A DNA stretch of 64,000 nt from Mobula hypostoma (lineage: Eukaryota): NCBI RefSeq assembly GCF_963921235.1, contig NC_086097.1:81656001-81720000 (forward strand), read 5' to 3'. This document shows positions 1 through 39,337 of the stretch, piece after piece (the stretch's first letter is position 1; the number at the start of each line of letters is the position of its first letter). A model generated the notes under the pieces. It did not search any database, was not told the DNA's origin, and saw only the letters and a list, made by a program, of their open reading frames with translations. Position numbers and translations under genes: made by a program.

Positions 1-3000
1 GTGGAATTGTTTTTCTCAGAGGACAACAGACTCTGGCTGACAAACGCAATGGGCCTCAAGCTGGTGCCCTGATCCTGATACAGGACACCCCCTAAACCCT
101 CTCGGCTGGCATCAGTGTGCAGTACATATGGCAATCGGGGGTCCGCAAAAGCCAGCACCAGTGCCTGGATCAGCAGCTCCTTCAAAGACTGAAAGGCCTC
201 CTCATATTTTGCATCCCACCTCGGTCCAAAGGGCTCCGACAAGCTAAGGTACACTCCACCCTCCTGTCCTTTTTCTCCCCCTCCCTTTCTTCCCCAAGGG
301 AAGGTAACCGCACAGAAGCTGATTCAAAGGGTGACTCACTTTCACGTAGCCTTTCACAAACCTCCAATAGTAACAGAACCCGAGGAATGAGTGCAGAGTG
401 CTCATAGTCTGGGGTCTTGGCCAAGTGGTAACAGCTTCTATCTTAGCTGGATCTGTAACTACTCCATCTCATGAGACTATGTGCCCAACGTAGCTAACAG
501 ACATTTGGCAGAACTGGCACTTGTCCAGGGTAAGTTTTAACCCTTCAGCTTTCAGGCAGCCCAGCACCTTCAGCAGCCTTGCTTCATGTGCTTCCAAGTA
601 GATCCAAATACTATGAGGTCATCCAGATATACTAACACCTCAAGCAAATTCATATCACCCACCGTCTTCTCCATGACCCGCTGGAAGGTTGCAGGAGCTC
701 CCAAGATGCCCTGGGACATCCTTTCGAACTGAAAAAGTCCCAGAAGACATATAAATGCTGTTTTCTCTTTGTCAGCCTCACTCATGGGGATCTGGTAATA
801 CCCATTCCTCAAGTCCAGCACACTGAACCACTTCACACCACTCAGGCACCAGCGCATCTTCAATCCTCAGGACAGTATACTGGTCAGGAATGGTGCGCCT
901 GTTCAGAGTCCTATAGTCCACATACATCCGTACCTTCACATTCTTCTTTTGCGCCACTACTACTGGGGACGCATAGGGGCTTCGGGACTCGGTGATGATC
1001 CCAGCTTCCTTCAACTTACACAAATGCTGCTGAACGTCCTCCACCTTTGCAAGGGCCAGTCACCGCGATCTTTCTCTGAACTGGATATCCTCAGTCACCC
1101 AGACAGTGTGACGCGTGCTCTTGGAACAACCCACATCAAACTGTTCGGTGGAAAAGACACCTTCCAGCTTCAACATCCTCTCTACCAACCTCCTCTTCCA
1201 ACCTGTAGGAACCGGGGAGTCCCCGAAGTTGAACGACTCAACGGTCAACTCTCCCCGCTTTTCCGATAGTTTCTCCACGGCGTGTTTCACAGGGGCACTA
1301 GACATTACCGTCACCGGGAACAAATGTGCCAGCGGCATCCCCCGCTTAAAGGTGACCTCCCTCTTCGTAGTGTTCCTGACAATCACTGCCATCCTGTGTT
1401 CCTGTACAACCGAGGGCTTCTGCAATTCGGGCCTCACCAGTACCCCAGCAGGAAATCCCAACTCCCCCTCGTGGTCTTCCAGAGTGTCCACTAAGAGGGC
1501 CTTGCCCTCAGGCACTCCGGGAAATTTGGGGATCTCCATCACTCTCGCTACTTCCCTGGGCCGTACTACCATTGGCTTCGACTGGATGAACCACACAGTC
1601 CCTCGTCTAAATTCGGTATCCGGCCCAATGCTGCCACGTGCTTCCTCAAAAGCAGCTCAAATCCCCGGGTGCACGGACAATGTTCCCAGAAAGCTCTCAC
1701 CAGCCTTCTCCTTGCAAGGCCTCCATGAGCCTCCTCACAAGAGGGGTGTTGGTCCCCACCAGAATTGAAATGCCGCCCCTCCTCAACAGGGTCCGGACAA
1801 ACCAGCACCAATGTATCAAAGACCTCAGACACACCCACATTGGTCTCCGAGAACTCCAACTTCACTGACAAATAACTGTCATATGGATAATCACTAGCAC
1901 TAAGCCCCCAGATCTCCAATGCCCTGAATGGTGTTAATGGTAAATGCTTCAAATACCGGTTGTAAAACGAACAGTATAACAACGTGACCTGCGACCCGGC
2001 GTCAAGTATGGCTTTAGTATAAATACCCTCCATTCATAGCGGCACACTGGAGCATGGCCTCACTAAGCCTTCAGGAATAGGGCCTTTTTGCTTTCGGGGG
2101 TTCCTTGGTACATTGCTGGGAACGTGTTCCCCCAGAGACACCAGGCCATTCCCTCACTGGGTCTCCTTTAGATTTTCCCAATGACCCTCCCAGGTTAGGT
2201 ACCCAGGGGCTCACTCTCCTTCTGGTGTGACACCTGCTGCCAGCAGCCCTCCGCATTGTCCGTCCCCTTGGGGAATCTGCCCCCCCCCCCGCCATCAACT
2301 CCATCATATTAGGGCGGGGGGGTCACACCCGCTGATAACAGCCGACATATCTCCGTTCTCAACTCTGCCGCAATCTCCTCTACCGCTCCCCAGGGTAGGC
2401 TATCTGTGGTCAGTTCACCGCAGGGGACTGCTACCGAGGACTGTACCCTGCTGACAGCGTCCTACCATGCCTCCTCTGCATTCTCCTCTTCCCGTACCTC
2501 TCTGATCAGCTCAACAAAAGATGGAGGGGGGCATGTCTTATGAGACTGACGGAGACCCCAAGCAATCAGATCCTGGGACTGGGCGCCCCTGGCTATCTGG
2601 TCCATTCTTAACTGATCCACCTCAGCCGCCTGAATGACCCCTCTGTGCCACAAGCAATTTAGCCGCCTCTCTAGCAGAAAAATAAAAGCAGAAAACTTCC
2701 CCTCTTCTCCTGACACATATTCTGAAACCCCACCATGAGTTCCATTGGGCTTCCAGTCAGACCAAAAGCATTGTCCAGTGCTTGTATGCAATTCACAGCT
2801 GTCGCTACGGGATACTTTAACCTGACAGCTCTCACAACGTCAGCGGCCCGCCCATTCAAACTTTCAACCAATCTCTGTCGCTTTTCATCATCCGAGCACT
2901 GCCACTCATCTAACAACTGACAGGTCCACTCTGTCCAAGTCTCATACTCCTCCTCCCCTTTAGGGGTGGGCGTTATTCCAGAGAATAGGCAGAGCCTGCC

Positions 3001-3365
3001 ATAGCTGGGACTTTGAATCTGATTTTTCTATTTATTCGCCAGAGAGGTAAGGGTGGATACTAACTCAAAATTCTCATTCTTCACCAGGGGACGTGGACTA
3101 ATTAAACGTTCCAAATCAAACCACTCTTTCCCCTAACTCCTCAGAAATGATCAAACTCTGTCTTTGAAATCTCCACCCCCAGCTACCGCTACCTCAGCAC
3201 CGGTCTGCATTAGAACGAGAGCTGCACGAGCCATTTTATCAAACCTCTGCCCAAAATCGCAACTTCAACAGTACTTAACAGGCGAATTAACAATTCATCT
3301 GGAGTACAAATATCTGCCCCACTGGTTCATTGCTCAGGGTAATCACACAGCATCCAATGGAATCA

Positions 3366-3384
3366 ATCCCGAACATAGCCCCCA
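3366..3384 (-). promoter_or_regulatory. Degenerate tRNA-Pro primer-binding site
   Basis: TGGGGGCTATGTTCGGGAT compared with the canonical Pro PBS TGGGGGCTCGTCCGGGAT. Confidence 0.65.
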
Positions 3385-3388
3385 TAAT

Positions 3389-3953
3389 TGTACCTCTGGC
3401 TTCGGCTAGCAGCTTAACATAGGGGATGATAGCCCCCGGCCCGGCCAAACTTAAGAAATCCCGTTTGGGTGGATGCTGCATGATGTGTCCCTGTTACAAA
3501 TCAGTACCCTGAAATAACATACAGTACACAAAATGCGATTAAACGATTAAGCTTTATAATTCTTACTTTGACTATATGGTTAGTAAAGAAAATGAAAAAA
3601 AAAGAAAAAGGGCACAATCTTATTAAACAGTCTATGCACAATGTTGGAGCTCACTGATAAGCCGATCGTCCACCATCAACCTCCTCCGATCGTCGCTGCC
3701 CTTCGGACCCTCACTCCAAGTCCACCCTGTCCGGTGGTCTACCGACTCTCTCCATTCGCGTCCTCTCTCCTCATCTCTCCCCGGCAAAAGACCGCAAAAA
3801 CCTCTCATTCAGACTCACAAGAAAGAACAACAGCATTCCAAACCCCATTATCTCTAGTCATAACCCAAACATTGCTGCTACAAAGAAACCATTACATTAT
3901 CAGTGAAACCTTGCAGCATGTTACACAGCAGTGAAACCCTACAGCATGTGACA
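3389..3953 (-). repeat. Probable 5' LTR of the PNMA-gag Gypsy
   Basis: TG...CA ends on the minus strand (TGTCACA...GGTACA), followed after 4 nt by a PBS-like sequence. The second LTR is outside the window, so the boundaries are inferred. Confidence 0.6.
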
Positions 3954-4409
3954 GAACATTACTTCCACGTTTGCCTGCAGCAACTACACATCTGGTGACT
4001 CATTAATTTATTGCCAATTCCTCAATGTTGCTACAGCAAAATCAGAGATCTATCATCTATCAGTATCATGGGAATATTCTGATCACAGATTGCAATCGTT
4101 CAGAAATACAAGAGACCGTGCAGATGCTGGAATCCAGAACAACACGCAAAATGCTGGCAAAGCAAGCCAGTACCACCCATAATGAGATGGCAGAGCAGAC
4201 TCGATGGGCCAAATGCCCTAATTCTGCTCATATACATCTTATACATGCACCATATTAGGGCATGAAATCCTGACTGCTGCCAACCCAAATCCCGTGAATG
4301 AAAACAACAGATTTAATGATTTCATTAACTCAAAGGCAAAATAACTCAACAGATAATAAACTGATATTATTGATAAAAGCAGATCTAATAGAATCTTCTT
4401 TTCCAATTA

Positions 4410-4620
4410 CGTGCTGAGGAGAAAAACAAAACAGAAAATACCTGAAACAGTCAGGCCACACAGAAGCTATGGAAAGAGAAACAGTTAATGTTGCAGCTCC
4501 AATCAGGGAACTTTGATTAGAAGCATCAACCCTTCTAATTTTCACAGATGCTGTGTGACCTGTCAAATGTTTCCAGTACTTTTCCATTTTTATTACAAAG
4601 TTCCAGCATATGCAATTTCA
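4410..4620. repeat. Old fold-back remnant of PLE 3' tail sequence
   Basis: Antisense tail-like arm followed by sense arm ttttcacagatgctgtgtgacctg...ttccagcatatgca. Confidence 0.45.
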
Positions 4621-5017
4621 TTTTATTTTAATTATTCTCAGAAACTGGAAGAAAGATGTTAACTGGGTAGTCGGTGGATACACTAAAATTATTCATGTCT
4701 GTACAGTACTGTGCTGTTCAAAGATAAAGAAATAAAAAGAACTGAAAAAGAAACTGGATTTGTTCAGCTAGTCCAGTGTGGATATTTTGATAAAGAATAG
4801 AACCTGTAGAGGAAAGGTAACTAAGAGGATTGGGGAAGACAACTTGATCATTCTAAATACTGGCCTCAAAATTGTAATGACCACAATATTACCTCAAGCA
4901 ACATAGACAATAAATTAATAAACTCTCAATCAACTTCCTGATTTTCGATAAATAGAATAGCATAAAGAAGACCATTAGTATCAGGTTTATTATCACTGAA
5001 TACATTATGTTTTGAGC

Positions 5018-6330
5018 AATGATCCCAGTTATGCCTGCCTCTTCTATGAACAGTCCATGTTTGAAGCCTTGCCCAGTAATACTCCCCAACTCGTCCTCCG
5101 CTACATTATCAACTGCATTAGTGCTGCTTCATGCATCTATGCTAAGCTTGTCAATTTCATCAGCTTTGCCTCTAACTTCTACCCTGCCCTTAAATTCACT
5201 TGGTCCATCTCTGACAACTCCCTCCTCTTTCTCAATCTCTCTGTCTCCAGCTCTGGAGACAAACTTTTATAACGAACGTCATTTATAAACCTATTGATTC
5301 CCATGGATAGTCTGACTATAATTCTTCCCACCCTCTCTCCTGTAAAACTGCTATTCCCTTTTCTCAGTTCCTTCGCCGCCACTACATCTGTTCCTAGGAT
5401 GCAGCGTTCCTTTCCAGGACATCTCTTCCATTTCCTGAATATCCACGGTCACCCCATCTTCCTGCCACCTTAACAGTGATAGAATTCGTGTCCTTACCTA
5501 CCACCCATCAGCCTTGCAATCAACACATCATCCTTCACAACTTTTGCCACCTCCAAAGGGATCCCACCACTAAGCACATCCTTACCTCTCTTTGTTTCCC
5601 ACAGGGATCACTCCTTCCTTGTTCATTCATCCCTCCCCACTAATTGCCCACCCAGCACCTACCCTTGCTAGCAGCCTAAGTGCTACACCTCCTCCCTCAT
5701 CTCCATTCAGGCCCCCAAACAGTCCCTCCAGGTGAAGCAAGGCTTCACCTGCAAATCTGCTGGGGTAGTGTATTGTGTCCAGTGCTCCCAATGCAGCCAC
5801 CTCTACATTTGTGAGACATGTTGTAGATTGGGGACCACTTTGTTGAGCACCTCTGCTCCATCCAGCACAAGTGGGACTACCTGGTGGCCAAACATGTTAA
5901 TTCCCATTCCGACATGTCAGGCACCATCAGGCTGGAGGAGCAACACCTTATATACTCTATCTGGGTAGCCTCCAACCTGACAGCATGAATATCGATTTTT
6001 CCTTCTGATAAAATAATTCCTCACCACCCCCCCCCATTCCCCTCTCTGAATTTTTACCTCTTCTCACCTGCCTATCACTTTCCCCCCTCCCCATACCTTC
6101 CTCCTTCTCTTTCTCCTACAGTCCACTCTCCTCTCATATCAGATTCCTTCTTTGGCCTTTCCCACCATGTTCAGTGACTTCCCCCTTCCTTTCCAGTCCT
6201 AAAGAAGGATCTCAGTCTGAAACGTTGACTGTTTATTCATTTCTATAGATGCTGCCTGACACATTGAGTTCCTCCAGCATTTTGTGTGCTGCTTTAGATT
6301 TCCAGCATCTGCAGACTTTCTTGTGTTTCT
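5018..6330 (+). mobile_element. Old 5'-truncated Penelope-like element (RT C-terminus, GIY-YIG, 3' tail with decayed HHR)
   Basis: Fragments FASNFYPALKFTWSISD and FTCKSAGVVYCVQCSQC..LYICET are homologous to the 1042-aa ORF; the tail is shared. Confidence 0.9.
6195..6230 (+). ncRNA. Decayed minimal hammerhead ribozyme (core mutated)
   Basis: agtc CTAAAGA aggatctcagtct GAAA cg TT gact; CUGANGA core changed to CUAAAGA. Confidence 0.7.
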
Positions 6331-6544
6331 GTATTTATATTATGCACAACCTAGCGTCGATTTATGAACATACAATCAATGTCTATAACCTATCTCATGT
6401 GCTTATACTTATTTATTTTGTTTTATTATTATTGTGTTCCTTATCTTGAGTTTTTTGTTTGTGCCGCAGTAGATCTGGAGTAACAATTACTTCATTCTCC
6501 TTACACTTGTGCACAAGAAATGACATTAAGTAATCTTGAATCTG

Positions 6545-9561: not shown

Positions 9562-10806
9562 TTGAGCCCGATTGAATTTTTTGAGGATGTGACTAAATAC
9601 ATTGATGAAGGTAGAGCAGCAGATGTAGTGTATATGGATTTCAGCAAGGCATTTGATAAGGTACCCCATTGCAAGGCTTATTCAGAAAGTAAGGAGGCAT
9701 GGGATCCTAGGGGACATTGCTTTGTGGATCCAGAACTGGCTTGCCCACTGAAGGCAAAGAGTGTTTGTAGACAGGTCATATTCTGCACGGAGGCGGTGAC
9801 CAGTGGTGTACTTCAGGGATCTGTTCTGGGACCCCTACTCTTTGTGATTTTTAGAAATGACCTGGATGAGGAAGTGGAGGGATGGGTTAGTAAATTTGCT
9901 GATGACACAAAGGTTGGGGGTGTTGTGGATAGTATGGAGGGCTGTCAGAAGTTACAGTGGGACATTGATAAGATGCAAAACTGAGCTGAGAAGTGGAAGA
10001 TGGAGTTCAGCCCAGGTAAGTGTGAGGTGGTTCATTTTGGTAGGTCAAATATGATGACAGAATATAGCATTAATGGTGAGACTCTTGGCAGTGTGGAGGA
10101 TCAGAGGGATCCTGGGGTCCGAGTCTATAGGACACTCAAAGCTGCTACACAGGTTGACTTTGTAGTTAAGAGGGCATATGGTGCATTGCCCTTCATCAAT
10201 TGTGGGATTGAGCTTAAGAGCCGAGAGGTAATGTTGGAGCTATATAGGGCCTTGGTCAGACCCCACTTGGAGTACTGTGCTCAATTCTGGTTGCCTCACT
10301 ACAGGAAGGATGTGGAAACCATAGAAGGGGTGCAGAGGAGTTTTACGAGGATGCTAACTGGATTGGGGAGCATGCCTTATGAGAATAGGTTGAGTGAACT
10401 CTGCCTTTTCTCCTTGAAGCAACAGAGGATGACAGGTAACCTGACAGAGGTGTACCAGGTAATGGGAGGCACTGATCGCGTGGATAGTCAGAGGCATTTT
10501 CCCCAGGGCTGAAATGGCTTGCATGAGAGGGCATAGTTTTAAGGTACTTGGAAGTAGGTACAGAGGAGATGTCAGGGGTAAGTTTTTTATGCAGAAAGTG
10601 GTGAGTGCGTGGAATGGGCTGCCGGTGGTGGTGGAGTCAGAAACGATAGAGTCTTTTAAGAGACTCATAGATGGATACGCTGAGCTTAGAAAAATAGAGG
10701 ACTATGGGTAAGCCTAGATAGTTCTAAGGTAGGGACATGTTTGGCACAGCTTTGTGGGCCAAACAAAATCTGTGTTGCGCTGTAGGTTTTCTATGTCTCT
10801 ATTTCT
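9562..10806 (+). mobile_element. CR1 LINE, 5'-truncated and degenerate
   Basis: YMDFSKAFDKVPH, QGSVLGPLLF, FADDTK, RPHLEYC..W.P motifs; ttctatg-type 3' tail. Confidence 0.92.
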
Positions 10807-11299: not shown

Positions 11300-11750
11300 A
11301 ACGCAAACAACAGGAATTCTGCAGATGCTGGAAATTCAAGCAACATACATCAAAGTTGCTGGTGAACGCAGCAGGCCAGGCAGCATCTATAGGAAGAGGC
11401 GCAGTCGACGTTTCAGGCCGAGACCCTTCGTCAGGACTAACTGAAGGAAGAGTGAGTAAGGGATTTGAAAGCTGGAGGGGGAGGGGGAGATGCAAAATGA
11501 TAGGAGAAGACAGGAGGGGGAGGGATGGAGTCGAGAGCTGGACAGGTGATAGGCAAAAGGGGATACGAGAGGATCATGGGACAGGAGGTCCGGGAAGAAA
11601 GACGGGGGGGGGGTGACCCAGAGGATGGGCAAGAGGTATATTCAGAGGGACAGAGGGAGAAAAAGGAGAGTGAGAGAAAGAATGTGTGCATTAAAAAGAG
11701 TAACAGATGGGGTACGAGGGGGAGGTGGGGCCTAGCGGAAGTTAGAGAAG
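11300..11750 (-). repeat. 3' pseudo-LTR of the PLE
   Basis: Direct repeat of 14814-15263. Confidence 0.95.
11403..11438 (-). ncRNA. Minimal type I hammerhead ribozyme
   Basis: AGUC CUGACGA AGG-GUCUCGG-CCU GAAA CG UC^GACU: stem I AGUC/GACU, intact core, stem II AGG/CCU, palindromic ACGU in place of stem III. Confidence 0.9.
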
Positions 11751-14700
11751 TCAATGTTCATGCCATCAGGTTGGAGGCTACCCAGACGGAATATAAGGTG
11801 TTGTTCCTCCAACCTGAGTGTGGCTTCATCTTTACAGTAGAGGAGGCCGTGGATAGACATGTCAGAATGGGAATGGGATGTGGAATTAAAATGTGTGGCC
11901 ACTGGGAGATCCTGCTTTCTCTGGCGGACAGAGCGTAGATGTTCAGCAAAGCGGTCTCCCAGTCTGCGTCGGGTCTCACCAATATATAAAAGGCCACATC
12001 GGGAGCACCGGACGCAGTATATCACCCCAGTCGACTCACAGGTGAAGTGATGCCTCACCTGGAAGGACTGTTTGGGGCCCTGAATGGTGGTAAGGGAGGA
12101 AGTGTAAGGGCATGTGTAGCACTTGTTCTGCTTACACGGATAAGTGCCAGCAGGGAGATCAGTGGGGAGGGATGGGGGGGACGAATGGACAAGGGAGTTG
12201 TGTAGGGAGCGATCCCTGCGGAATGCAGAGAGAGGCGGGGAGGGAAAGATATGCTTAGTGGTGGGATCCCGTTGGAGGTGGCGGAAGTTACAGAGAATAA
12301 TATGTTGGACCCGGAGGCTGGTGGGGTGGTAGGTGAGGACCAGGGGAACCCTATTCCTAGTGGGGTGGTGGGAGGATGGAGTGAGAGCAGATGTACGTGA
12401 AATGGGGGAGATGCGTTTAAGAGCAGAGTTGATAGTGGAGGAAGGGAAGCCCCTTTCTTTAAAAAATGAAGACATTTCCCTCGTCCTAGAATGAAAAGCC
12501 TCATCCTGAGAGCAGATGCGGCGGAGACGGAGGAATTGCGAGAAGGGGATGGCGTTTTTGCAAGAGACAGGGTGAGAAGAGGAATAGTCCAGATAGTTGT
12601 GAGAGTCAGTAGGCTTATAGTAGACATCAGTGGATAAGCTGTCTCCAGAGACAGAGACAGAAAGATCTAGAAAGGGGAGGGAGGTGTCAGAAATGGACCA
12701 GGTAAACTTGAGGGCAGGGTGAAAGTTGGAGGCAAAGTTAATAAAGTCAACGAGTTCTGCATGCGTGCAGGAAGCAGCGCCAATGCAGTCGTCGATGTAG
12801 CGAAGGAAAAGTGGGGGACAGATACCAGAATAGGCACGGAACATAGATTGTTCCACAAACCCAACAAAAAGGCAGGCATAGCTAGGACCCATACGGGTGC
12901 CCATAGCTACACCTTTAGTTTGGAGGAAATGGGAGGAGCAAAAGGAGAAATTATTAAGAGTAAGGACTAATTCTGCTAGACGGAGCAGAGTGGTGGTAGA
13001 GGGGAACTGATTAGGTCTGGAATCCAAAAAGAAGCGTAGAGCTTTGAGACCTTCCTGATGGGGGATGGAAGTATATAGGGACTGGACATCCAAGGTGAAA
13101 ATAAAGCGGTGGGGGCCAGGGAACTTAAAATCATCGAAAAGTTTAAGAGCGTGAGAAGTGTCACGAACATAGGTCAGAAGGGATTGAACAAGGGGTGATA
13201 AAACCGTGTCGAGGTATGCAGAAACGAGTTCGGTGGGGCAGGAGCAAGCTGAGACAATAGGTCGGCCAGGACAGGCAGGTTTGTGGATCTTGGGTAGGAG
13301 GTAGAAACGGGAAGTGCGGGGTGTGGGAACTATAAGGTTGGTAGCAGTGGATGGGAGATCCCCTGAGCGGATAAAGTCGTTGATAGTGTGGGAGACAATG
13401 GCCTGGTGCTCCTTAGTGGGGTCACGATCGAGGGGTAAATAAGAGGAGGTATCCGCGAGTTGTCGCTGTGCCTCGGCAAGGTAGAGGTCAGTACGCCAGA
13501 CTACAACAGCACCCCCCTTATCAGCGGGTTTAATAATAATGTTAGGATTAGTGCGGAGGGAGTGGAGAGCAGAGCGTTCCGAAGGAGTGAGGTTGGAATG
13601 GGGACAAGGTGCGGTGAAGTCGAGACGGTTGATGTCCCGTCGGCAGTTGGCAATAAAGAGATCCAGAGCAGGCAGAAGACCAGAGCGGGGTGTCCATGAA
13701 GAAGAGGAGGGATGAAGACGGGAGAAGGGGTCATCGGTGGGGGTGGAAGAGTCCTTGCCGAAGAAGTAGGCTCGGAGACGGAGACGGCGGAAGAAAAGTT
13801 CCGCATCATGGCGAACACGGAACTCGCTGAGGTGTGGGCGAAGGGGGACAAACGTGAGGCCCTTACTGAGAACAGAGCGTTCTGCCTCCGACAGTTGAAG
13901 GTCGGAGGGGATGGTAAAGACCCGGCACGGATGAGAGCTGGGATCAGAGGGGGGACGGGGGAGGCTGGGGGTGTCAATGGAGAGGGGAGGGTTGGGGTGA
14001 GAGGAAGATGGAGCCTCTGAGGGCCCAGGAGTTGACGGTGGGATCTGAGGAAGACGGGGCTGCGGAGTGGTGGTGGGGGAAGGGGAGACGGGAGTCACAA
14101 CAGCAGCACATAAAGACCCGGCCTGGAGTTCAAGGCTGGAGTCGCAGTTGGTGGTTGCGCGATCGCTTTGAATGTCTCCATGGTCGTTGCTGGAGTCCGG
14201 GTTTTGAATATGTCCTGAGGTGTTGGAGCCGCCGAGACCAACGGCAGGCGCCGCAATTTGAAGTTCATGCCTGCTAGCGTCGGGGCCGGCAGGCTCTGCA
14301 GTCCGTAGATGTAAGATCTTGCGATCTTTGCCTAACATGACAAAGTCAAAAAAACGGCGATTGCAGGCGTGGATCCGACGGAGGATGAAATAGCGGGTAG
14401 GACCATTACAGATGGCGAAGAAAGTGTCCCGAAGGTGTGGAAGGGTCTGGGATAGGGACACCAAGTACCTCCTCATGGCGGAGAGCGTCGCCTTCAGAGC
14501 TTGACGGGAGAAGCGGCGAGAGGCAGAGTCAATAAAATGTGAGTACCTGGGATCCTCAGAAGGTCCAAATTGAGAGGCTTGGAAACGAATCCTAAAGCCA
14601 ACTGGAGTAAGTTGGCGACGGAGGCACGTTCCAAGAAAGGATACATGGCAGTGATAGCGAGTTTGAGTCAAAGTCTGGTCGAAAAGTTGAAGAGCCGAAG

Positions 14701-14860
14701 AAATCACAGATGGGGAGCAGTGAGAGATGGTTTCACTGAACTCCCGTCGAAGAGAGGATCTAAACTTCTTCGGTGTAGGCATCACCGGAAGAGGCTTCGC
14801 AGTAGTGAATTTAAACGCAAACAACAGGAATTCTGCAGATGCTGGAAATTCAAGCAACAT
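11732..14860 (-). CDS. PLE polyprotein: N-terminal domain, Pro/Ser linker, reverse transcriptase, Cys-rich linker, GIY-YIG endonuclease (1042 aa; alternative start 14782)
   Basis: Motifs KPADKGGAVVV, YLLPKIHK..PGRPIVS, LDVQSLYTSI, GVAMGT, RYIDD, FLD, YYKPT, CKQNKCYTC, VIYCVRCSRCGLLYIGET..RFAEH; no internal stops. Confidence 0.96.
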   Translation of the reverse strand: MLLEFPASAEFLLFAFKFTTAKPLPVMPTPKKFRSSLRREFSETISHCSPSVISSALQLFDQTLTQTRYHCHVSFLGTCLRRQLTPVGFRIRFQASQFGPSEDPRYSHFIDSASRRFSRQALKATLSAMRRYLVSLSQTLPHLRDTFFAICNGPTRYFILRRIHACNRRFFDFVMLGKDRKILHLRTAEPAGPDASRHELQIAAPAVGLGGSNTSGHIQNPDSSNDHGDIQSDRATTNCDSSLELQAGSLCAAVVTPVSPSPTTTPQPRLPQIPPSTPGPSEAPSSSHPNPPLSIDTPSLPRPPSDPSSHPCRVFTIPSDLQLSEAERSVLSKGLTFVPLRPHLSEFRVRHDAELFFRRLRLRAYFFGKDSSTPTDDPFSRLHPSSSSWTPRSGLLPALDLFIANCRRDINRLDFTAPCPHSNLTPSERSALHSLRTNPNIIIKPADKGGAVVVWRTDLYLAEAQRQLADTSSYLPLDRDPTKEHQAIVSHTINDFIRSGDLPSTATNLIVPTPRTSRFYLLPKIHKPACPGRPIVSACSCPTELVSAYLDTVLSPLVQSLLTYVRDTSHALKLFDDFKFPGPHRFIFTLDVQSLYTSIPHQEGLKALRFFLDSRPNQFPSTTTLLRLAELVLTLNNFSFCSSHFLQTKGVAMGTRMGPSYACLFVGFVEQSMFRAYSGICPPLFLRYIDDCIGAASCTHAELVDFINFASNFHPALKFTWSISDTSLPFLDLSVSVSGDSLSTDVYYKPTDSHNYLDYSSSHPVSCKNAIPFSQFLRLRRICSQDEAFHSRTREMSSFFKERGFPSSTINSALKRISPISRTSALTPSSHHPTRNRVPLVLTYHPTSLRVQHIILCNFRHLQRDPTTKHIFPSPPLSAFRRDRSLHNSLVHSSPPSLPTDLPAGTYPCKQNKCYTCPYTSSLTTIQGPKQSFQVRHHFTCESTGVIYCVRCSRCGLLYIGETRRRLGDRFAEHLRSVRQRKQDLPVATHFNSTSHSHSDMSIHGLLYCKDEATLRLEEQHLIFRLGSLQPDGMNIDFSNFR

Positions 14861-15263
14861 ACATCAAAGTTGCTGGTGAACGCAGCAGGCCAGGCAGCAT
14901 CTATAGGAAGAGGCGCAGTCGACGTTTCAGGCCGAGACCCTTCGTCAGGACTAACTGAAGGAAGAGTGAGTAAGGGATTTGAAAGCTGGAGGGGGAGGGG
15001 GAGATGCAAAATGATAGGAGAAGACAGGAGGGGGAGGGATGGAGCCGAGAGCTGGACAGGTGATAGGCAAAAGGGGATACGAGAGGATCATGGGACAGGA
15101 GGTCCGGGAAGAAAGACGGGGGGGGGTGACCCAGAGGATGGGCAAGAGGTATATTCAGAGGGACAGAGGGAGAAAAAGGAGAGTGAGAGAAAGAATGTGT
15201 GCATTAAAAAGAGTAACAGATGGGGTACGAGGGGGAGGTGGGGCCTAGCGGAAGTTAGAGAAG
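14814..15263 (-). repeat. 5' pseudo-LTR of the PLE (ORF end plus 3'UTR duplicated upstream)
   Basis: Direct repeat of 11300-11750; begins with the last codons of the ORF. Confidence 0.95.
14917..14952 (-). ncRNA. Minimal type I hammerhead ribozyme
   Basis: Identical to 11403-11438. Confidence 0.9.
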
Positions 15264-15807
15264 GTCTGTTGTACCATCAGCAAAAGTCAATATAATTCAA
15301 CCTAACAAGGTTTATATGACTGAGCACATAACTACTCAATGGAATGTTTTAAAAAATAGTTTGGGGAATTGGGGAATACAAAGTTAGTAACCACTTCAGA
15401 GACTCAGCATTGTTATAATTTGCCAAAGTGACGCCCACTACAAATTCATGCTTTGAAACCGGAGGTTTGTGGTCTCTTCAGAGTGGAAAGATCATAGGGA
15501 GAGGTATTTTTTATTTCCGTCAAATCATTAAGAAATGCTTGAATACATGCAATATTCTGCTCTACAAAAATCTTGAGTCGTCTGGCACTGATGAGCAAAC
15601 AGAGGGAAGACAAGGCAAACCTTTGCTAATATTAGTCTAATTTATTGTCCATTAAAAACCATGCAAAATAAAGACCAACATTTAAAAAGGGAGGAACATT
15701 TTACTCTGCTAATTGAATGACACAATCCTCTGAAAATCAAGTAAAAAAAACTTCCTAGATAAAATATGACTATTTGCTTTGAAGATGGAACTCTCATCAA
15801 CATTTAC

Positions 15808-25392: not shown

Positions 25393-26048
25393 AAACGTGA
25401 GAAAAGCTGCAGATGCTGGAAATCCAAAGGAAGTTCGAGAAATCGATATTCCTTCCATCAAGTTGGAGGCCACCCGGATAAAATATAAGGTGTTGCTCCT
25501 CCAACCTGAGTGTGGCCTCATCACGGCAGTAGAGGAGGCCATGGACTGACATGTCGGAATGGGAATGGGAAGTGGAACTGAAATGGGTGGTTACAGGGAG
25601 ACTGCTTCGCGAAGTAGCTACGTTCCATCTGCCAGAAAAAGTGGCATGAACATTGATTTCTCGAACTTACAGTAATTGTTTCTCCCCACCTTCACCCATT
25701 TCCCATTCCTGTTTCCCTCTCCTTATCTGCCAATCACCTCCCTCTGGTGCTCCTCCCCCTTCCCTTTTTTCCCATGGCCTTCTCTCTCCCATCAGAGTCC
25801 CCCTTCTCCAGCCCCTTATCTCTTTCACCAATCAACTTCCCAGCTCTTAACTTCACCTTCTCTCCCATTCCTGGTTTCACCTATCACCTGCCACCTTGTA
25901 CTTCTTTCTTCCTCCCCTCCCCCCACCTTCTTATTCTGACTTCTCCCTCCCCTTCCTTTCCAGTCCAGAAGAAGGGACTCAGTCTGAAATTCTTTTCCAT
26001 AGATGCTGCCTGGCCTGCTGAGTTTCTCCAGCATTTTGTCTGTGTTGC
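25393..26048. mobile_element. Older PLE 3' fragment with inversion
   Basis: Antisense tail end plus antisense HGLLYCRDEATLRLEEQHLIF, then sense MNIDFSN and tail with a broken HHR at about 25962-25990. Confidence 0.8.
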
Positions 26049-26892: not shown

Positions 26893-27177
26893 TGTAGCGA
26901 TGTGCTACACACAGCACTAGAATAACCACACAGAGTCGGTGAGTTAGAGTTGCAATGAAAGAGATTTATTCAAACTTCGCGGCCCGCTTTAAAGTCTTCC
27001 TGTTCCCGCCCTCCCTGGGCGGGACTACTGTGGGGAATGCATATTCCCAGACCCTTTCTGCGCGCGGGATTTTCCCCCTGCTGGTGAAGACGGCCTGGCG
27101 CCCTTTTCGGGGCCGGCCCTCTGCCTGCGCGCGCTGTTGTGAGCCGGTTCGTGTGTGCCAGAAAGTGGGTCGCCACA
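26893..27177 (-). repeat. 3' LTR of the Gypsy element
   Basis: Direct repeat of 30977-31261; preceded on the minus strand by the G-rich PPT-like TTGGGGGGGCGGTTA. Confidence 0.95.
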
Positions 27178-27179
27178 TA

Positions 27180-30100
27180 ACCGCCCCCCCAAGACGGCGA
27201 TACCTCCCCCAATGTCCACAGTCTGGATCGGCCTCTGTTTGGGAGGTCGGCCCCTGCGCCGCAGTGCCTGAGCCTGGACCGGTTGCGCCAAGTCCACATG
27301 GGCCGGTTTGAGTCGGTCCACCGTGAAAACCTCTTCTCTCCCCCCAATGTCCAGCACGAACGTGGACCCGTTGTTCCTGATCACCATAAACGGCCCCTCG
27401 TAGGGCCCCTGTAGCGGTGCCCGGTGTCCGCCCCGTCGTACAAAAAGAAACTTACAGTTCTGCAGGTCTTTGGGTACGCAGGTCGGGCTCTGTCCGTGCT
27501 GTGAAGTGGGGATGGGGGCCAGGTTACCAAGCCTCTCCCGTAGTCTGTCCAGGACTGCTGTGGGTTCTTCCTCTTGCCCCCTTGGGGCTGGTATGAACTC
27601 TCCTGGGACGACCAGGGGCGCGCCGTACACCAACTCGGCCGACGAGGTGTGTAGATCCTCCTTGGGCGCCTTGCGGATTCCGAGCAGGACCCAGGGAAGT
27701 TCGTCCACGCAGTTAGGCCCCTCCAGGTGGGCCATGAGAGCCGATTTCAGGTGACGGTGGAAGCGCTCCACTAGTCCGTTCGACTGTGGGTGGTAGGCAG
27801 TTGTGTGGTGTAGCTGTGTTCCTAAAAAGCTGTCCATAGCCGACCACAGGCTGGAGGTGAACTGGGCGCCCCTGTCGGAGGTAATGTGGGCCGGTACCCC
27901 AAAGCGTGCTACCCAGGTTGCGATCAGTGCTCAGGCACAGGATTTGGAGGTGGTGTCGCTGAGCGGGACTGCCTCTGGCCATCTGGTGAACCGGTCTATC
28001 ATAGTTAGGAGGTACCGCGCTCCTCGCGACACTGGCAGGGGCCCCACGATATCCACATGAATGTGGTCGAACCTCCGGCGGGTGGGTTCAAACCGCTGCG
28101 GCAGAGCCTTGGTGTGCTGCTGCACCTTGGCCGTTTGGCACTGCATGCACGTTTTGGCCCATTCACTGACCTGCTTACAAAGTCCATGCCACACGAACCT
28201 GTTGGCGACCAGCCGGACGGTTGTCCTGATGGAGGGGTGTGCTAAGTTGTGAATGGACTCGAAAACCCGCCGGCGCCAGGCTGCTGGGACGACGGGGCGG
28301 GGTTGGCCGGTAGCTACATCACACAGTAGGGTCCTCTCACCTGGGCCTACGGGGAAGTCTTGAAGCTGTAAACCGGAGACTGCAGTCCTGTAACTGGGGA
28401 ACTCAGTGTCTGCCTGCTGTGCCTCTGCCAGCACTGCATAGTCCACCCCCTGGGACAGGGCCTGTATGGTAGGTCTGGAAAGTGCGTCCGCCACGACGTT
28501 GTTCTTTCCAGAGACATGCCAGATGTCCGTTGTTTACTCGGAGATGTAGGACAGATGTCGCTGCTGGCGGGACGACCAGGGGTCGGACACCTTTGTGAAC
28601 GCAAAGGTAAGCGGTTTGTGGTCCGTGAACATGGTGAAGGGCCTACCTTCTAAGAAGTACCTGAAATGTCGGATTGCCAGGTATAGTGCCAATAGCTCCC
28701 GGTCGAAAGCACTGTATTTGAGTTCGGGTGGTCATAGGTGTTTGCTGAAAAACGCCAGGGGTTGCCAGCGACCCTCGATGAGTTGTTCCAGCACTCCACC
28801 GACCGCTGTGTTGGATGCGTCCACCGTGAGGGCAGTAGGAACGTCCGTTCTGGGGTGCACTAGCATCGCGGCGTTTGCTAAGGCTTCTTTGGTTTTAACG
28901 AAAGCGGTTGCGGCCTCTTCGTCCCAGGTAATGTCCTTGCCCTTACCCGACATTAGAGTGAACAAGGGGCGCATGGTTCTGGCTGCTGAGGGGAGGAAAC
29001 GGTGGTAAAAATTCACCATACCCACGAATTCCTGCAGGCCTTTGATTGTGTTGGGTCGGGGGAAGTGGCGGACCGCGGCTACCTTGGCGGGCAGCGGGGT
29101 TGCCCTGTCTTTAGTAATCCTGTGGCCCAGGAAGTCGATGGTGTCGAGTCCGAACTGGCATTTGGCTGCATTGATTGTAAGGCCGAATTCGCTCAGGCGG
29201 GAGTAGAGGTGGCGGAGGTGGGACAGATGCTCCTGCCGACTACTGCTGGCAATGAGGATGTCGTCCAAATAGATGAATGCAAAGTCCAGTTCGCGTCCCA
29301 CCGCGTCCATTAGCCACTGGAAAGTCTGTGCGGCATTCTTTAGACCAAACGGCATTCGGAGGAATTCGAAAAGTCCGAACGGGGTGATAAGTGCTGTTTT
29401 GGGGATGTCGTCCTGATGTACAGGGATTTGATGGTATCCTCGGACGAGGTCTACCTTGGAAAAGATCCTTGCGCCGTGTAGGTTTGCTGCGAAGTCTTGA
29501 ATGTGCGGCACAGGGTAGCGGTCTGACGTTGTAGCCTCGTTCAGTCTGCGGTAGTCACCGCATGGTCTCCAGCCCCCCGTTGCCTTGGGCACCATGTGAA
29601 GGGGGAGGCCCATGGGCTGTCGGACCGTCGTATGATCCCTAATTCCTCCATCCTCTTGAACTCCTTCTTCGCCAGTCGGACTTGTCTGGGGGAAGCCTTC
29701 GAGCACGGGCGTGGAGGGGTGGTCCCTGGGTCGGGATGTGGTGCTGTACTCCGTGTCTGGGCATGGCTGCCGTGAACTGCGGTGTCAGTACTGATGGGAA
29801 ATCCGCTAGGACCCTGGTGAATTCATCGTCGGACAGCGTGATGGAGTCCAGGTGTGGGGCTGGCAACTGTACTTCACCCAGGGAGAACGTTTGAAAAGTC
29901 TTGGCGTGGACTAATCGCTTCCCTTGCAGGTCGACCAGCAGGCTGTGGGCTCGTAGAAAATCTGCCCCCAGCAGTGGTTGGGCCACGGCGGCCAGTGTGA
30001 AGTCCCACGTGAACCGGCTGGAGCTGAACTGTAGCCGCACCGTGCGGGTGCCGTAGGTTCGTATTGTGCTGCCATTAGTGGCCCTCAGGGTGGGTCCCGG

Positions 30101-30262
30101 TTCTCTGTTGCGGGTGTCGTAACTCGTTGGAGGTAAGACGCTGATCTCCGCTCCGGTGTCGACCAAAAAGCGGCGTCCCGACTGCTTGTCCCAGACGTAC
30201 AGGAGGCTGTCCTGATGGCCAGCCGCCGTAGCCATCAGCGGCGGCTGGCCCCGGCGTTTCCC
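27180..30262 (-). pseudogene. Gypsy Pol (PR-RT-RH-IN), broken by frameshifts and stops
   Basis: Split over ORFs 29639-30328, 28732-29706, 27931-28494 and 27025-27837. Confidence 0.9.
30217..30262 (-). promoter_or_regulatory. -1 programmed ribosomal frameshift signal (gag/pol)
   Basis: Slippery G GGA AAC in the gag frame, 5-nt spacer, perfect 12-bp stem GGCCAGCCGCCG/CGGCGGCUGGCC; pol is in the -1 frame. Confidence 0.8.
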
Positions 30263-30937
30263 AGGAATTTGCAGGGTGGTCTGCAGCGGCGGGCCTCTGT
30301 GCCCCACCGCTGGTGGTAGAAACACCATTGTTCGTTGGGCTCCTCACTCCCGTCACCGGGTTTTGTAGGCTCTGCTACCAGGCCTGGTCTGGTCTGTCGG
30401 GCACGCGGCTTGGTGATCTGTGCGACGGATGCCCCTCTCCCTTTCCTGGCATTCCACAGCACATCTGCTCGGGCCGCCACCTCCCGGGGGTTGCTGAAAT
30501 CTGCGTCGGACAGCAGCAGGCATATGTCCTCGGGCAGTTGCTCCAGGAACGCCTGCTCAAACATGAGGCAGGGTTTGTGTCCTTCAGCCAGGGCCAGCAT
30601 CTCGTTCATTAATGCTGACGACAGCCTGTCTCCCAAACCATCCAGGTGCATTAAGCGGCGTGCTCGTTCGCGCCGTGAGAGTCCGAAAGTCCTTATGAGC
30701 AGGGCTTTGAATGCTGTGTATTTGCCGTCCTCCGGGGGCGACTGTATAAACTCCTCAACTTGTGCAGCAGTCTCCTGGTCGAGGGAGCTCAGCACGTAGT
30801 AGTAGCGAGTGGACTCTGAGGTTATCTGCTGAATGTGGAATTGTGCTTCTGCTTGTTCGAACCATAATTGGGCTCGCAGCGTCCAGAAGCTTGGCAGTTT
30901 TAACGAAACTGCGTGAACAGATGCAGCGTCGGTCATC
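30235..30937 (-). CDS. Gypsy Gag (intact)
   Basis: MTDAASVHAVSLKLPSFW..WFEQAEAQF..CFYHQRWG..CRPPC. Confidence 0.8.
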
Positions 30938-30960
30938 TCTGGTCCAAATATCGTTTGGGC

Positions 30961-30974
30961 CGTCGGGGTCACCA
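30961..30974 (-). promoter_or_regulatory. Primer-binding site, tRNA-Trp
   Basis: TGGTGACCCCGACG is complementary to the tRNA-Trp 3' end (..CGUCGGGGUCACCA) and lies 2 nt after the LTR. Confidence 0.85.
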
Positions 30975-30976
30975 AT

Positions 30977-31261
30977 TGTAGCGATGTGCTACACACAGTG
31001 CTAGAATAACCACACGGAGTCGGTGAGTTAGAGTTGCGATGAAAGAGATTTATTCAAACTTCGTGGCCCGCTTTAAAGCCTTCCCGTTCCCGCCCTCCCT
31101 GGGCGGGATTGCTGTGGGGAATCCATATTCCCAGACCCTTTCTGCGCGCGGGATTTTCCCCCTGCTGGTGAAGATGGCCTGGCGCCCTTTTCGGGGCCGG
31201 CCCTCTGCCTGCGCGCGCTGTTGTGAGCCGGTTCATGTGTGCCAGAAAGTGGGTCGCCACA
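30977..31261 (-). repeat. 5' LTR of the Gypsy element
   Basis: Direct repeat of 26893-27177, about 12 mismatches counted by eye. Confidence 0.95.
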
Positions 31262-32565: not shown

Positions 32566-34307
32566 CCGATTCGAGATAAAGGTGGGAAGATGTGCCTGGA
32601 GGCTGTGGAAGTGAGCGAGGTCCTCAATGAATACTTCTCTTCAGTATTCACCAATGAGAGGGAACTTGATGATGGTGAGGACAATATGAGTGAGGCTGAT
32701 GTTCTGGAGCATGTTGATATTAAGGGAGAGGAGGTGTTGGAGTTGTTAAAATACATTAGGACAGATAAGTCCCCGGGGCCTGACGGAATATTCTCCAGGC
32801 TGCTCTACGAGGTGAGAGAAGAGATTGCTGAGCCTCTGGCTAGGATCTTTATGTCCTCGTTGTCCACGGGAATGGTACCGGAGGATTGGAGGGAGGCGAA
32901 TGTTGTTCCCTTGTTCAAAAAAGGTAGTAGGGATAGTCCGGGTAATTATAGACCAGTGAGCCTTACGTCTGTGGTGGGAAAGCTGTTGGAAAAGATTCTT
33001 AGAGATAGGATCTATAGGCATTTAGAGAATCATGGTCTGATCGGGGACAGTCAGCATGGCTTTGTGAAGGGCAGATCGTGTCTAACAAGCCTGATAGAGT
33101 TCTTTGAGGAGGTGACCAGACATATAGATGACGATAGTGCAGTGGATGTGATCTATATGGATTTTAGTAAAGCATTTGACAAGATTCCACACGGTAAGCT
33201 TATTCAGAAAGTTAGAAGGCATGGGATCCAGGGAAGTTTGGCCAGGTGGATTCAGAATTGGCTTGCCTACAGAAGGCAGAGGGTGGTGGTGGAGGGAGTA
33301 CATTCAGATTGGAGGATCGTGACTAGTGGTGTCCCACAAGGATCTGTTCTGGGACCTCTACTTTTTGTGAATTTTATTAACGACCTGGATGTGGGGGTAG
33401 AAGGGTGGGTTGGCAAGTTTGCAGACGACACAAAGGTTGGTGGTGTTGTAGATAGTGTAGAGGATTGTCAAAGATTGCAGAGAGACATTGATAGGATGCA
33501 GAAGTGGGCTGAGAAGTGGCAGATGGAGTTCAACCCGGAGAAGTGTGAGGTGGTACACTTTGGAAGGACAAACTCCAAGGCAGAGTACAAAGTAAATGAC
33601 AGGATACTTGGTAGTGTGGAGGAGCAGAGGGATCTCGGGGTACATGTCCACAGATCCCTGAAAGTGGCCTCACAGGTGGATAGGGTAGTTAAGAAAGCTT
33701 ATGGGGTGTTAGCTTTCATAAGTTGAGGGATAGAGTTTAAGAATCGCGATGTAATGATGCAGTTCTATAAAACTCTGGTTAGGCCACACTTGGAGTACTG
33801 TGTCCAGTTCTGGTCACCTCACTATAGGAAGGATGTGGAAGCATTGGAAAGGGTACAGAGGAGATTCACCAGGATGCTGCCTGGTTTAGAAAGTATGCAT
33901 TATGATCAGAGATTAAGGGAGCGAGGGCTTTACTCTTTGGAGAGAAGGAGGATGAGAGGAGACATTATAGAGGTGTACAAGATAATAAGAGGAATAGATA
34001 GAGTGGATAGCCAGCGCCTCTTCCCCAGGGCACCACTGCTCAATACAAGAGGACATGGCTTTAAGGTAAGGGGTGGGAAGTTCAAGGGGGCTATTAGAGC
34101 AAGGTTTTTTACTCAGAGAGTGGTTGGTGCATGGAATGCACTGCCTGAGTCAGTGGTGGAGACAGATACACTAGTGAAGTTTAAGAGACCACTAGACAAG
34201 TATATGGAGGAATCTAAGGAGGGGACTTATATGGGAGGCAGGGTTTGAGGGTTGGCACAACATTGTGGGCCGAAGGGCCTGCACTGTGCTGTACTATTCT
34301 ATGTTCT
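32566..34307 (+). mobile_element. CR1 LINE ORF2, 5'-truncated and young (single CGA>TGA-type stop at about 33724)
   Basis: KSPGPDGI, NYRPVSLTS, QHGF, PQGSVLGP, FADDTK; ttctatgttcta tail; inserted into an older antisense CR1 tail. Confidence 0.95.
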
Positions 34308-37300: not shown

Positions 37301-37319
37301 CATCTATAGGAAGAGGCGC

Positions 37320-37355
37320 AGTCGACGTTTCAGGCCGAGACCCTTCGTCAGGACT
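37320..37355 (-). ncRNA. Minimal type I hammerhead ribozyme
   Basis: Identical to 11403-11438. Confidence 0.9.
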
Positions 37356-38477
37356 AACTGAAGGAAGAGTGAGTAAGGGATTTGAAAGCTGGAGGGGGAG
37401 GGGGAGATGCAAAATGATAGGAGAAGACAGGAGGGGGAGGGATAGAGCCGAGAGCTGGACAGGTGATAGGCAAAAGGGGATACGAGAGGATCATGGGACA
37501 GGAGGTCCGGGAAGAAAGAAGGGGGGGGGTGACCCAGAGGATGGGCAAGAGGTATATTCAGAGGGACAGAGGGAGAAAAAGGAGAGTGAGAGAAAGAATG
37601 TGTGCATTAAAAAGAGTAACAGATGGACTTCCGCCACCTCCAATGGGATCCCACCACTAAGCATATCTTTCCCTCCCCGCCTCTCTCTGCATTCCGCAGG
37701 GATCGCTCCCTACACAACTCCCTTGTCCATTCGTCCCCCCCATCCCTCCCCACTGATCTCCCTCCTGGCACTTATCCGTGTAAGCGGAACAAGTGCTACA
37801 CATGCCCTTACACTTCTTCCCTTACCACCATTCAGGGCCCCAAACAGTCCTTCCAGGTGAGGCATCACTTCACCTGTGAGTCGACTGGGGTGATATACTG
37901 CGGCCGGTGCTCCCGATGTGGCCTTTTATATATTGGTGAGACCCGACGCAGACTGGGAGACCGCTTTGCTGAACATCTACGCTCTGTCCGCCAGAGAAAG
38001 CAGGATCTCCCAGTGGCCACACATTTTAATTCCACATCCCATTCCCATTCTGACATGTCTATCCACGGCCTCCTCTACTGTAAAGATGAAGCCACACTCA
38101 GGTTGGAGGAACAACACCTTATATTCCGTCTGGGTAGCCTCCAACCTGATGGCATGAACATTGACTTCTCTAACTTCCGCTAGGCCCCACCTCCCCCTCG
38201 TACCCCATCTGTTACTCTTTTTAATGCACACATTCTTTCTCTCACTCTCCTTTTTCTCCCTCTGTCCCTCTGAATATACCTCTTGCCCATCCTCTGGGTC
38301 ACCCCCCCCCCCGTCTTTCTTCCCGGACCTCCTGTCCCATGATCCTCTCGTATCCCCTTCTGCCTATCACCTGTCCAGCTCTCGGCTCTATCCCTCCCCC
38401 TCCTGTCTTCTCCTATCATTTTGCATCTCCCCCTCCCCCTCCAGCTTTCAAATCCCTTACTCACTCTTCCTTCAGTT

Positions 38478-38513
38478 AGTCCTGACGAAGGGTCTCGGCC
38501 TGAAACGTCGACT
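38478..38513 (+). ncRNA. Minimal type I hammerhead ribozyme
   Basis: agtc ctgacga agggtctcggcct gaaa cg tc gact. Confidence 0.9.
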
Positions 38514-39337
38514 GCGCCTCTTCCTATAGATGCTGCCTGGCCTGCTGCGTTCACCAGCAACTTTGATGTATGTTGCTTGAATTTCCAGCATCTGCAGAAT
38601 TCCTGTTGTTCTCAGATATTTGAGATAGACGGAGTGCGCTTTTCAGTCGATTTCTGTGTATGTTCTAATAATGAAGGTACTGTCATAGATTGAGGGATAG
38701 GTCAGATTACATGGATAAGTCAGGGCCAACAAACAAGCATGATTCTCAGAACAGACAACATGGCCACAGCAGTCCCGATCAGCGAGGACTGGAGTCAGGA
38801 TGAGGATGTCGTTTCTAGATTATGTCATGTGATCCAAGGGACACAGGCTGAATACAAACCAGATTGTGAAACAATCAGAATAGACGCAATTAGAGCAGAA
38901 CAACCACATAACCCCTCACACTCTCAAGTGGAAGCAAAGGTCTGGAGTAAAGGATGGTCCAAGAAGGTCAAGTTGATCTAAAATAACACACATTGCCCAA
39001 GACTATAAAACCAACAAGTCATATAATCAAAATTCTACGGATCAGATCTGAATTTGAGAAAACTCAGAAGATGTTGGATTTTTAGTTGATGTGTGGATAA
39101 TTTAATGCTTGCTGGTCTATGATCAATAATTGCAGCCTTCTTTGTTTCGAAGTCTTAAGGCCTAAGATTCTGGAACATGGTTGTAGACGTGTGTTTTAAG
39201 GTGTTTTGCTGAATGTTTAACCTTTGAGCAAATGTACCCAAAATATGAATGGTTTGAGCATGGAAAACATTACTTGAGATGTGCTCACATGTGAGGCGAA
39301 GGAGAGACAAAGAGAGACGGAGAGGGGGAGGGACACT

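Follow-up and report, generated by a model that had tools for sequence, protein, structure and literature searches.

The 64-kb stretch of Mobula hypostoma DNA analysed here (the window, positions 1-64,000, to which all coordinates refer) carries at 11300..15263, on the minus strand, a Penelope-like element (PLE) with a hammerhead motif in each of its two pseudo-long terminal repeats (pLTRs). This element, called the window copy below, raises questions that stand open in PMC2377424, PMC3846280, PMC4209133 and PMC11167929: how is the pLTR rebuilt, which RNA strand is copied, and what is the role of the hammerheads? The window copy is a real Neptune-like PLE of the ordinary type and, taken singly, an ordinary one. 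It is also a young, full-length member of a hugely amplified family, whose thousands of long, near-identical copies make insertion footprints countable, and it is in these footprints that the value of the analysis lies. They rule out a linear RNA running from cut to cut as the template, indicate recopying of one sense RNA and reveal a near-strict rule of two start sites, which narrows the mechanistic question for Penelope elements to a circle or a jump. The headline hypothesis of the initial annotation, replication through a ribozyme-processed linear or circular monomer, was published in 2014 and only half fits. The parts of the window copy on which the argument turns are the following:

14814..15263, minus strand: upstream pLTR, with the last codons of the open reading frame (ORF), the 3' untranslated region (UTR), a hammerhead and 107 nt past its cut; a 5'-truncated second pass of the unit
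14915..14953, minus strand: upstream minimal type I hammerhead, predicted cut at 14921/14920
11732..14860, minus strand: open frame of 1042 aa, with a likely start at 14782 (1016 aa)
11300..11750, minus strand: downstream pLTR, with a long-class tail ending 107 nt past the cut
11401..11439, minus strand: downstream minimal type I hammerhead, predicted cut at 11407/11406

Identical hammerhead cores start at 14948 and 11434, and their canonical cuts delimit a unit of 3514 nt that holds the whole ORF; the positions given for the cuts and the unit in the initial annotation were reproduced exactly. Bases of the unit are numbered u1-u3514, u1 being the first base past the upstream cut. The pLTRs (15263-14814 and 11750-11300) are 99.56% identical over 451 columns, with one substitution and one indel in a C run, and the frame between them (14860-11732) is open for 1042 aa counted from its first ATG, which confirmed the description of an uninterrupted reverse transcriptase (RT)/GIY-YIG ORF flanked by near-identical repeats.

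Analysis of the 3.48-Gb genome revealed 39,061 exact occurrences of a 33-nt hammerhead word and 64,181 of a 30-nt tail word. A 514-nt query from the 5' part of the ORF gave 2723 candidates, and the 40 of these that were scored are 99-100% identical. For the long copies, 95 ten-kb stretches around matches were fetched, which gave 92 distinct loci including the window copy, after removal of L036, L107 and L139 (the same loci as L035, L108 and L138) and of L136 (no tail). These 92 loci are the best-scoring copies and not a random sample, part of the set having been selected for an upstream repeat and 39 loci chosen on the 5' ORF. Alleles were counted over 89 loci, L042, L065 and L100 being left out (internal deletions). 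The 5' ends of short copies were determined in 95 copies sampled by the tail word, and 27 short two-armed insertions were obtained among copies drawn by position, beginning with the start of contig C1. The full unit is present in the 89 loci, and in 43 of them the ORF is open over at least 1000 aa, which backs the recently active, autonomous vertebrate PLE of the initial annotation as far as recent amplification and autonomous type are concerned. Variants found in at least four copies are enriched in synonymous changes when compared with singletons (43:50 versus 209:492, p=0.002), as expected of an active lineage. The family is thus supported as a recently amplified PLE of the autonomous type.

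All 92 long copies extend 27-112 nt past the downstream cut. Their 3' ends form two classes, 45 at 57-73 nt and 45 at 99-112 nt, with one further end at 27 nt and one at 44 nt; none of the copies ends at the cut, and none begins at the upstream cut. Among the 39 loci chosen on the 5' ORF, 37 continue through the upstream cut, and 22 extend more than 325 nt, into the end of the ORF. In the window copy the two classes correspond to the following sites:

14848..14864, minus strand: putative RT start site 1, lying 57-73 nt past the cut in 45/92 copies
14809..14822, minus strand: putative RT start site 2, lying 99-112 nt past the cut in 45/92 copies; its motif resembles that of site 1

Because the insertions begin some 65 or 102 nt past the cut and continue across it, linear cut-to-cut RNA is excluded as the template, and with it the uncapped linear monomer processed by the ribozyme that had been proposed for this element. 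Across loci the upstream repeat ranges in length from absent to 4336 nt (single-unit loci reaching 3368 nt), and the 450 bp once regarded as the regenerated partial tandem is therefore not a special length.

An exact target site duplication (TSD) of at least 9 bp brackets 65 of the 92 long insertions, and for this reason the bracketed tandems are single events. In 47 of 49 two-armed insertions a short tail on one arm is paired with a long tail on the other, namely in 20 of 22 long insertions (the exceptions being L046 and L106) and in all 27 short ones, 26 of which have a TSD of at least 9 bp. We infer that the two nicked target strands prime at different start sites, as a two-site (dimeric) enzyme would. 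A tail at one end only has been described qualitatively for PLEs (PMC8557442); neither a count nor a per-insertion mechanism for the tail rule was found in the literature, in which most subscription papers were unsearchable. Two further copies of the family lie in the window. The one at 37248-38610 (99% identity) is a two-armed, 5'-truncated insertion with a 14-bp TSD, one short and one long tail, and the one at 48273-49385 (96%) is an older truncated copy that has a short tail and whose 5' end carries an inverted internal piece of 73 nt. Elsewhere in the genome, L035/L036 (G000:C36, near 131.85 Mb) is a head-to-head insertion in which both arms exceed one pass of the unit and one arm has a 489-nt internal deletion.

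How the upstream repeat arises was approached through the alleles of the two repeats. In the first set of loci, repeats within a locus differ by 0.73%, as against 1.52% between loci. At shared non-CpG sites of the ORF, the upstream and downstream repeats are discordant in 12 of 509 cells, compared with 175 expected if they were unlinked. The ratio of observed to unlinked discordance is 0.01 in the ORF below u2500, 0.13 at the end of the ORF, 0.09 and 0.31 in the 3' UTR, and 0.12 in the tail. Locus-private variants common to both repeats were detected in 21 of the 89 loci, and in two loci these are clusters of A>G changes. In L061 (G000:C9, near 135.64 Mb), 33 of the 39 rare variants are A>G, and all 19 that fall in the overlap are present in both repeats. 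In L055 (G000:C40, near 72.30 Mb, 14-bp TSD) the main copy shows a cluster of 17 A>G changes, 15 of which recur in the inverted arm; the upstream repeat has 14, of which 12 are common to the main copy and two are its own, and five of the main copy's are absent, the three kinds being interleaved (11 are present in all three copies). The two loci have six A>G sites in common, which is the chance level (p=0.39), and no sibling of at least 97% identity with either pattern was found outside the same insertion among the 40 best matches of each search.

In sense coordinates both clusters consist of A>G with almost no T>C, which is the mark expected from ADAR editing of a sense template. The clusters are therefore ADAR-like, judging from the sequences, and, being private to a locus and common to both repeats, they point to one sense RNA that was copied twice within an insertion. 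Together with the linked alleles, these shared private variants make it likely that the end repeat is produced by copying the same RNA twice, and hence that reverse transcription past the junction regenerates the partial tandem, as the initial annotation had supposed. The sense footprints speak against the proposal of an antisense template (PMC3846280), as well as against the statement that pLTRs are not made by reverse transcription (PMC2377424). Literature listings contained no paper on RNA-editing marks in PLEs, under the limit given above for subscription papers, and neither for the tail rule nor for the locus-private A>G clusters is absence from print thereby shown. An idea derived from 37 loci, that the two repeats come from separate pLTR copies with fixed polarity, was dropped, as the repeats proved mostly linked at 89 loci; the discordance of the inverted-arm control was similar (0.21 versus 0.31), and a downstream-only excess was present only in loci picked by the upstream junction.

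As to the template on which this recopying occurs, we tentatively favour an uncut sense RNA, inside which RT would start approximately 65 or 102 nt past the cut, jump from the RNA 5' end to the 3' repeat and recopy the same molecule, rebuilding the upstream repeat. A jump on linear uncut RNA is more likely than a circle because short copies stop 24-34 nt upstream of the cut: 22 of the 95 5' ends fall within this 11-nt interval, at the outer edge of the ribozyme, and 34 lie in bins more than 80 nt upstream of the cut. Second passes stop at most 75 nt from the cut in 8 of 37 cases, compared with 3.9 expected (p=0.037). In L042 and L065 the 5' end falls no more than 5 and 2 nt, respectively, from the edge of an internal deletion, a coincidence that a misdirected jump would produce. 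The short-copy peak, the second-pass stops and these two loci fit an RNA 5' end at the outer edge of the ribozyme, an uncut ribozyme and a jumping RT. The candidate RNA start in the window copy is:

14953..14958, minus strand: initiator-like hexamer at the outer edge of the ribozyme, adjoining the short-copy stops; putative RNA start

The internal deletions of L042 and L065 join u1373 and u1390, respectively, to a point just upstream of the hammerhead, with landing points 17 nt apart, and L042 has four A residues at the joint.

On the uncut-RNA reading, the linear RNA would begin in the upstream repeat, approximately 30-35 nt upstream of its cut, and extend through the ORF into the downstream repeat. 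The endonuclease would nick both target strands 10-14 bp apart, as the TSDs suggest, and a presumably dimeric enzyme with two sites would account for the short tail on one arm and the long tail on the other that are seen in the two-armed insertions. Most cDNAs would run off the nearby RNA 5' end, which would give the tens of thousands of short copies, while some would move on to the 3' repeat and, after copying the ORF and crossing the junction a second time, end at variable points, leaving a pLTR. The hammerhead might cut only as a dimer, probably helped by protein, in a minority of RNAs or late in the cycle.

Several points weigh against this reading. Three of the 95 short copies start exactly at the cut (p~0.012 when compared with the local density; microhomology can account for one of the three), a hint that some cleavage takes place. 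The jump would have to be successful in many cases, as 29 of the 37 second passes extend past 75 nt; Pfam revealed no RNase H domain, and a circle yields the same DNA product as a jump. With regard to the recopying itself, the editing evidence comes from two loci, L061 (which lacks a TSD) and L055 (whose three copies are not identical), and the 5'-G depletion expected of ADAR was not significant (p=0.10). In 20 of 78 loci the repeats differ at two or more shared pLTR sites, without direction (13 versus 9), which indicates that alleles move between repeats after or during insertion. Gene conversion between neighbouring repeats can also yield shared variants, including the L061 pattern, and errors of assembly or polishing in repeats may be a further source of shared patterns.

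The principal rival involves the hammerheads directly. Each core has stems I and II, and stem III is reduced to the palindrome ACGU, for which reason both motifs are of the dimer type of minimal hammerhead, as far as can be judged from sequence. CUGANGA, GAAA, UH, stems I and II and the palindromic 15.2-16.2 of a minimal type I hammerhead are all present. The 10.1-11.1 pair, assigned by taking the base after A9 as the usual extra nucleotide, is G-U and not G-C in the window copy and most sampled copies (C occurs in some older copies). The complete core ascribed to each repeat by the initial annotation thus needs correction, since the hammerheads lack stem III. The minimal cores were found by pattern; an Rfam scan for hammerheads gave no match, only three chance hits.

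It is possible, if doubtful, that the two hammerheads cut as a dimer, that the 3514-nt monomer is ligated into a circle, and that RT, starting from the internal sites, rolls past the junction more than once. The junction of such a ligated circle would be identical in sequence to the tandem in the genome. This proposal for PLE hammerheads is already in the Discussion of Cervera and De la Pena 2014 (PMC4209133), and the circle idea for this element is not new. It explains the recopying, the continuous upstream lengths to 3368 nt in single-unit loci and the lack of a stop at the cut; both hammerheads match those of the window copy over 36 nt in 62 of 85 loci, and the three short copies beginning at the cut accord with it, as does the finding of no long TSD-bounded 5' transduction in the 27 loci that lack a near TSD. 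There is also a circularly permuted unit, with a repeat of 25 nt at its ends: L136 (G000:C5:59883381-59893380, oriented 2996-6529) consists of u607-3514 followed by u1-631, with no tail and no TSD. A variant at both of its ends was left unused, not being among the rare variants of that locus. However, a circle needs a second class of RNA for the 5'-end peak upstream of the cut, the predicted fold in context leaves stems I and II paired with a probability below 1%, a G-U pair occupies 10.1-11.1, and the repeats disagree at two or more shared sites in the 20 of 78 loci mentioned above. Cleavage by the minimal hammerheads of metazoan PLEs was weak even in dimers and trimers (PMC4209133). For a Poseidon element of the anole, two internal start sites were shown in vitro, where insertion also did not require ribozyme cleavage, and none of the RNA-seq reads had its end at the cut (PMC11167929). 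We regard with similar doubt the fuller version, in which the A>G marks would record one sense RNA copied two or three times per insertion by a two-site enzyme, with a different start site for each strand, on a 3.5-kb coding circle closed at the hammerhead. If this is true, the element would be an autonomous retrotransposon of the nucleus whose replication proceeds by rolling on a circular RNA made by the ribozyme.

Unlikely, in our estimate, is a template of linear read-through RNA from loci with at least two units, whose inherited repeats are homogenised at the DNA level by gene conversion or unequal crossover, a proposal that resembles the scenario put forward by Frangieh et al. 2024 (PMC11167929). 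Two loci do contain two full units (L108 and L138, each with a partial third and possibly DNA-level duplications); a variant of L138 that is present in both full units and absent from the third partial copy suggests duplication of DNA, and L066, L067, L137 and L143 have partly similar upstream-only alleles just past the cut. Two full units were, however, found in only 2 of the 92 loci, subfamily alleles of the two repeats are almost completely linked in the ORF, the interleaved A>G of the L055 upstream repeat (12 shared, 5 absent, 2 own) are unlike a conversion tract, and no parent with the L055 pattern was found among the 40 best matches. L108 and L138 had also been considered as evidence of rolling and were rejected, since the changes that their units have in common are for the most part CpG decay in L108 and fit DNA-level duplication in L138. 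Finally, a cut-to-cut linear monomer copied once from its 3' end, in a LINE-like manner, is extremely improbable in spite of the unit holding the whole ORF, given the ends of the 92 long copies and the 37 of 39 loci that run through the 5' cut.

The family has the features of canonical endonuclease-positive (EN+) PLEs: one ORF with a PLE-type RT plus, at its C terminus, a GIY-YIG with CCHH residues, partial tandem pLTRs from a 5'-truncated upstream copy and, in the family, the optional 30-40 bp tail, inverted partners and TSDs (the tail of the window copy is long, reaching 107 nt beyond the second cut, and an exact TSD of at least 9 bp is absent). Canonical EN+ Neptune-type PLEs (PMC8557442) have the same single ORF in the order RT, GIY-YIG, a CX2-5CXXC linker, a hammerhead in the pLTR, partial tandem pLTRs, an inverted 5'-truncated partner and a tail of 30-40 bp that is often at one end only. 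In contrast to them, the present family is very young and abundant, and its tail rule is near strict (47/49). With Poseidon_Ac of the green anole (Frangieh et al. 2024, PMC11167929) it shares two adjacent internal RT start sites that define the tail, cutting and extension of both target strands, and a hammerhead upstream of the start sites, but the clade is different, and the cut lies 26 nt inside the ORF there and 138 nt before the likely start here. The start sites of Poseidon_Ac were reported in bulk, without a strand difference, and the main text of PMC11167929 has no per-insertion pairing.

The minimal PLE hammerheads of Cervera and De la Pena 2014 (PMC4209133) show the same core with an extra base after A9, a palindromic 15.2-16.2 without a stem III loop, and tandem copies approximately 3 kb apart. 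They differ in their highly conserved G10.1-C11.1, which is G-U in most copies here, and the present sequence is nearly invariant over tens of thousands of copies. Non-LTR retrozymes (PMC7229834; bioRxiv 10.64898/2026.07.22.740005) likewise have tandem type I hammerheads, proposed circular intermediates and a link to PLE pLTRs, but are small and non-coding, with canonical hammerheads and demonstrated circles, whereas the element described here is of the autonomous type, 3.5 kb long and equipped with minimal hammerheads, its circle being hypothetical. A retrozyme is non-coding and non-autonomous, and the 1042-codon RT/EN ORF sets the window copy outside this class. The Penelope elements of Drosophila virilis (PMC2377424) and Adineta vaga (PMC3846280) have the same promoter in the pLTR, a variably truncated upstream copy, TSDs and a tail on one inverted pLTR; the A>G footprints of the present family point instead to a sense RNA copied twice.

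The remaining features of the window copy are the following:

12776..13264, minus strand: RT core, aa 533-695, with YIDD at 688 and Leu at 562
12110..12136, minus strand: CX4CXXC linker motif (Neptune/Nematis type), aa 909-917 (motif definition in PMC8557442)
11804..12028, minus strand: GIY-YIG endonuclease with CCHH residues, aa 945-1019
15264..15286, minus strand: 13-nt filler and a possible degenerate 10-bp TSD (9/10 match with 11299-11290), uncertain

Pfam matches to RVT_1 (aa 533-695, E 2.8e-5) and GIY-YIG (aa 945-1019, E 0.0011) are both below the curated cut-offs. The protein contains the motifs DKG, YIDD, CX4CXXC, GVIY...YIG and CCHH, and among 8000 candidates scored it has 81 relatives at E<=1e-50, the best named being from bamboo shark (71%), which points to a cartilaginous fish as the likely host; no solved structure of any relative was found. 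The Neptune-type placement is suggested by the CX4CXXC linker between RT and EN, which is present also in Nematis, and not by a tree with named references.

The first in-frame ATG does lie 60 nt past the cut, as initially annotated, but this codon (14860) is replaced by GTG in 25 of 88 copies, 9 of which have an open ORF. The ATG at 14782 is kept in all 88 copies and aligns with the N-termini of relatives, and for these reasons the true start is likely the second Met, which would give a protein of 1016 aa. Out-of-frame ATGs lie 20 and 56 nt past the upstream cut; the former opens an upstream ORF of 16 codons (14900-14850, minus strand), out of frame with the main ORF, and is kept in 86 of 88 copies. 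Residue 562 is Leu in the window copy and Pro in 85 of 88 other copies and 47 of 48 homologs. The element was called intact, which is true of its frame, but this replacement of a conserved RT residue suggests that the window copy may be dead.

Several other elements were identified in the window. At 5083-6328 and 25429-26048 lie relatives from the same group of PLEs, decayed to 66-83% identity, in which the hammerhead regions are degenerate. The region 27025-31053 (minus strand) resembles an LTR retrotransposon, with matches to gag-like (DUF7041), RT, RNase H and integrase domains and stops between the frames. RT fragments of non-LTR retrotransposons are present at 32566-34248, 9985-10512, 58512-59294 and 43723-44427 (all on the plus strand), with Pfam RVT_1 matches in the two that were scanned (32566 and 58512). 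An open stretch of 160 codons at 54827-55309 (minus strand), which has no Pfam match, may belong to the 5' region of a host gene.

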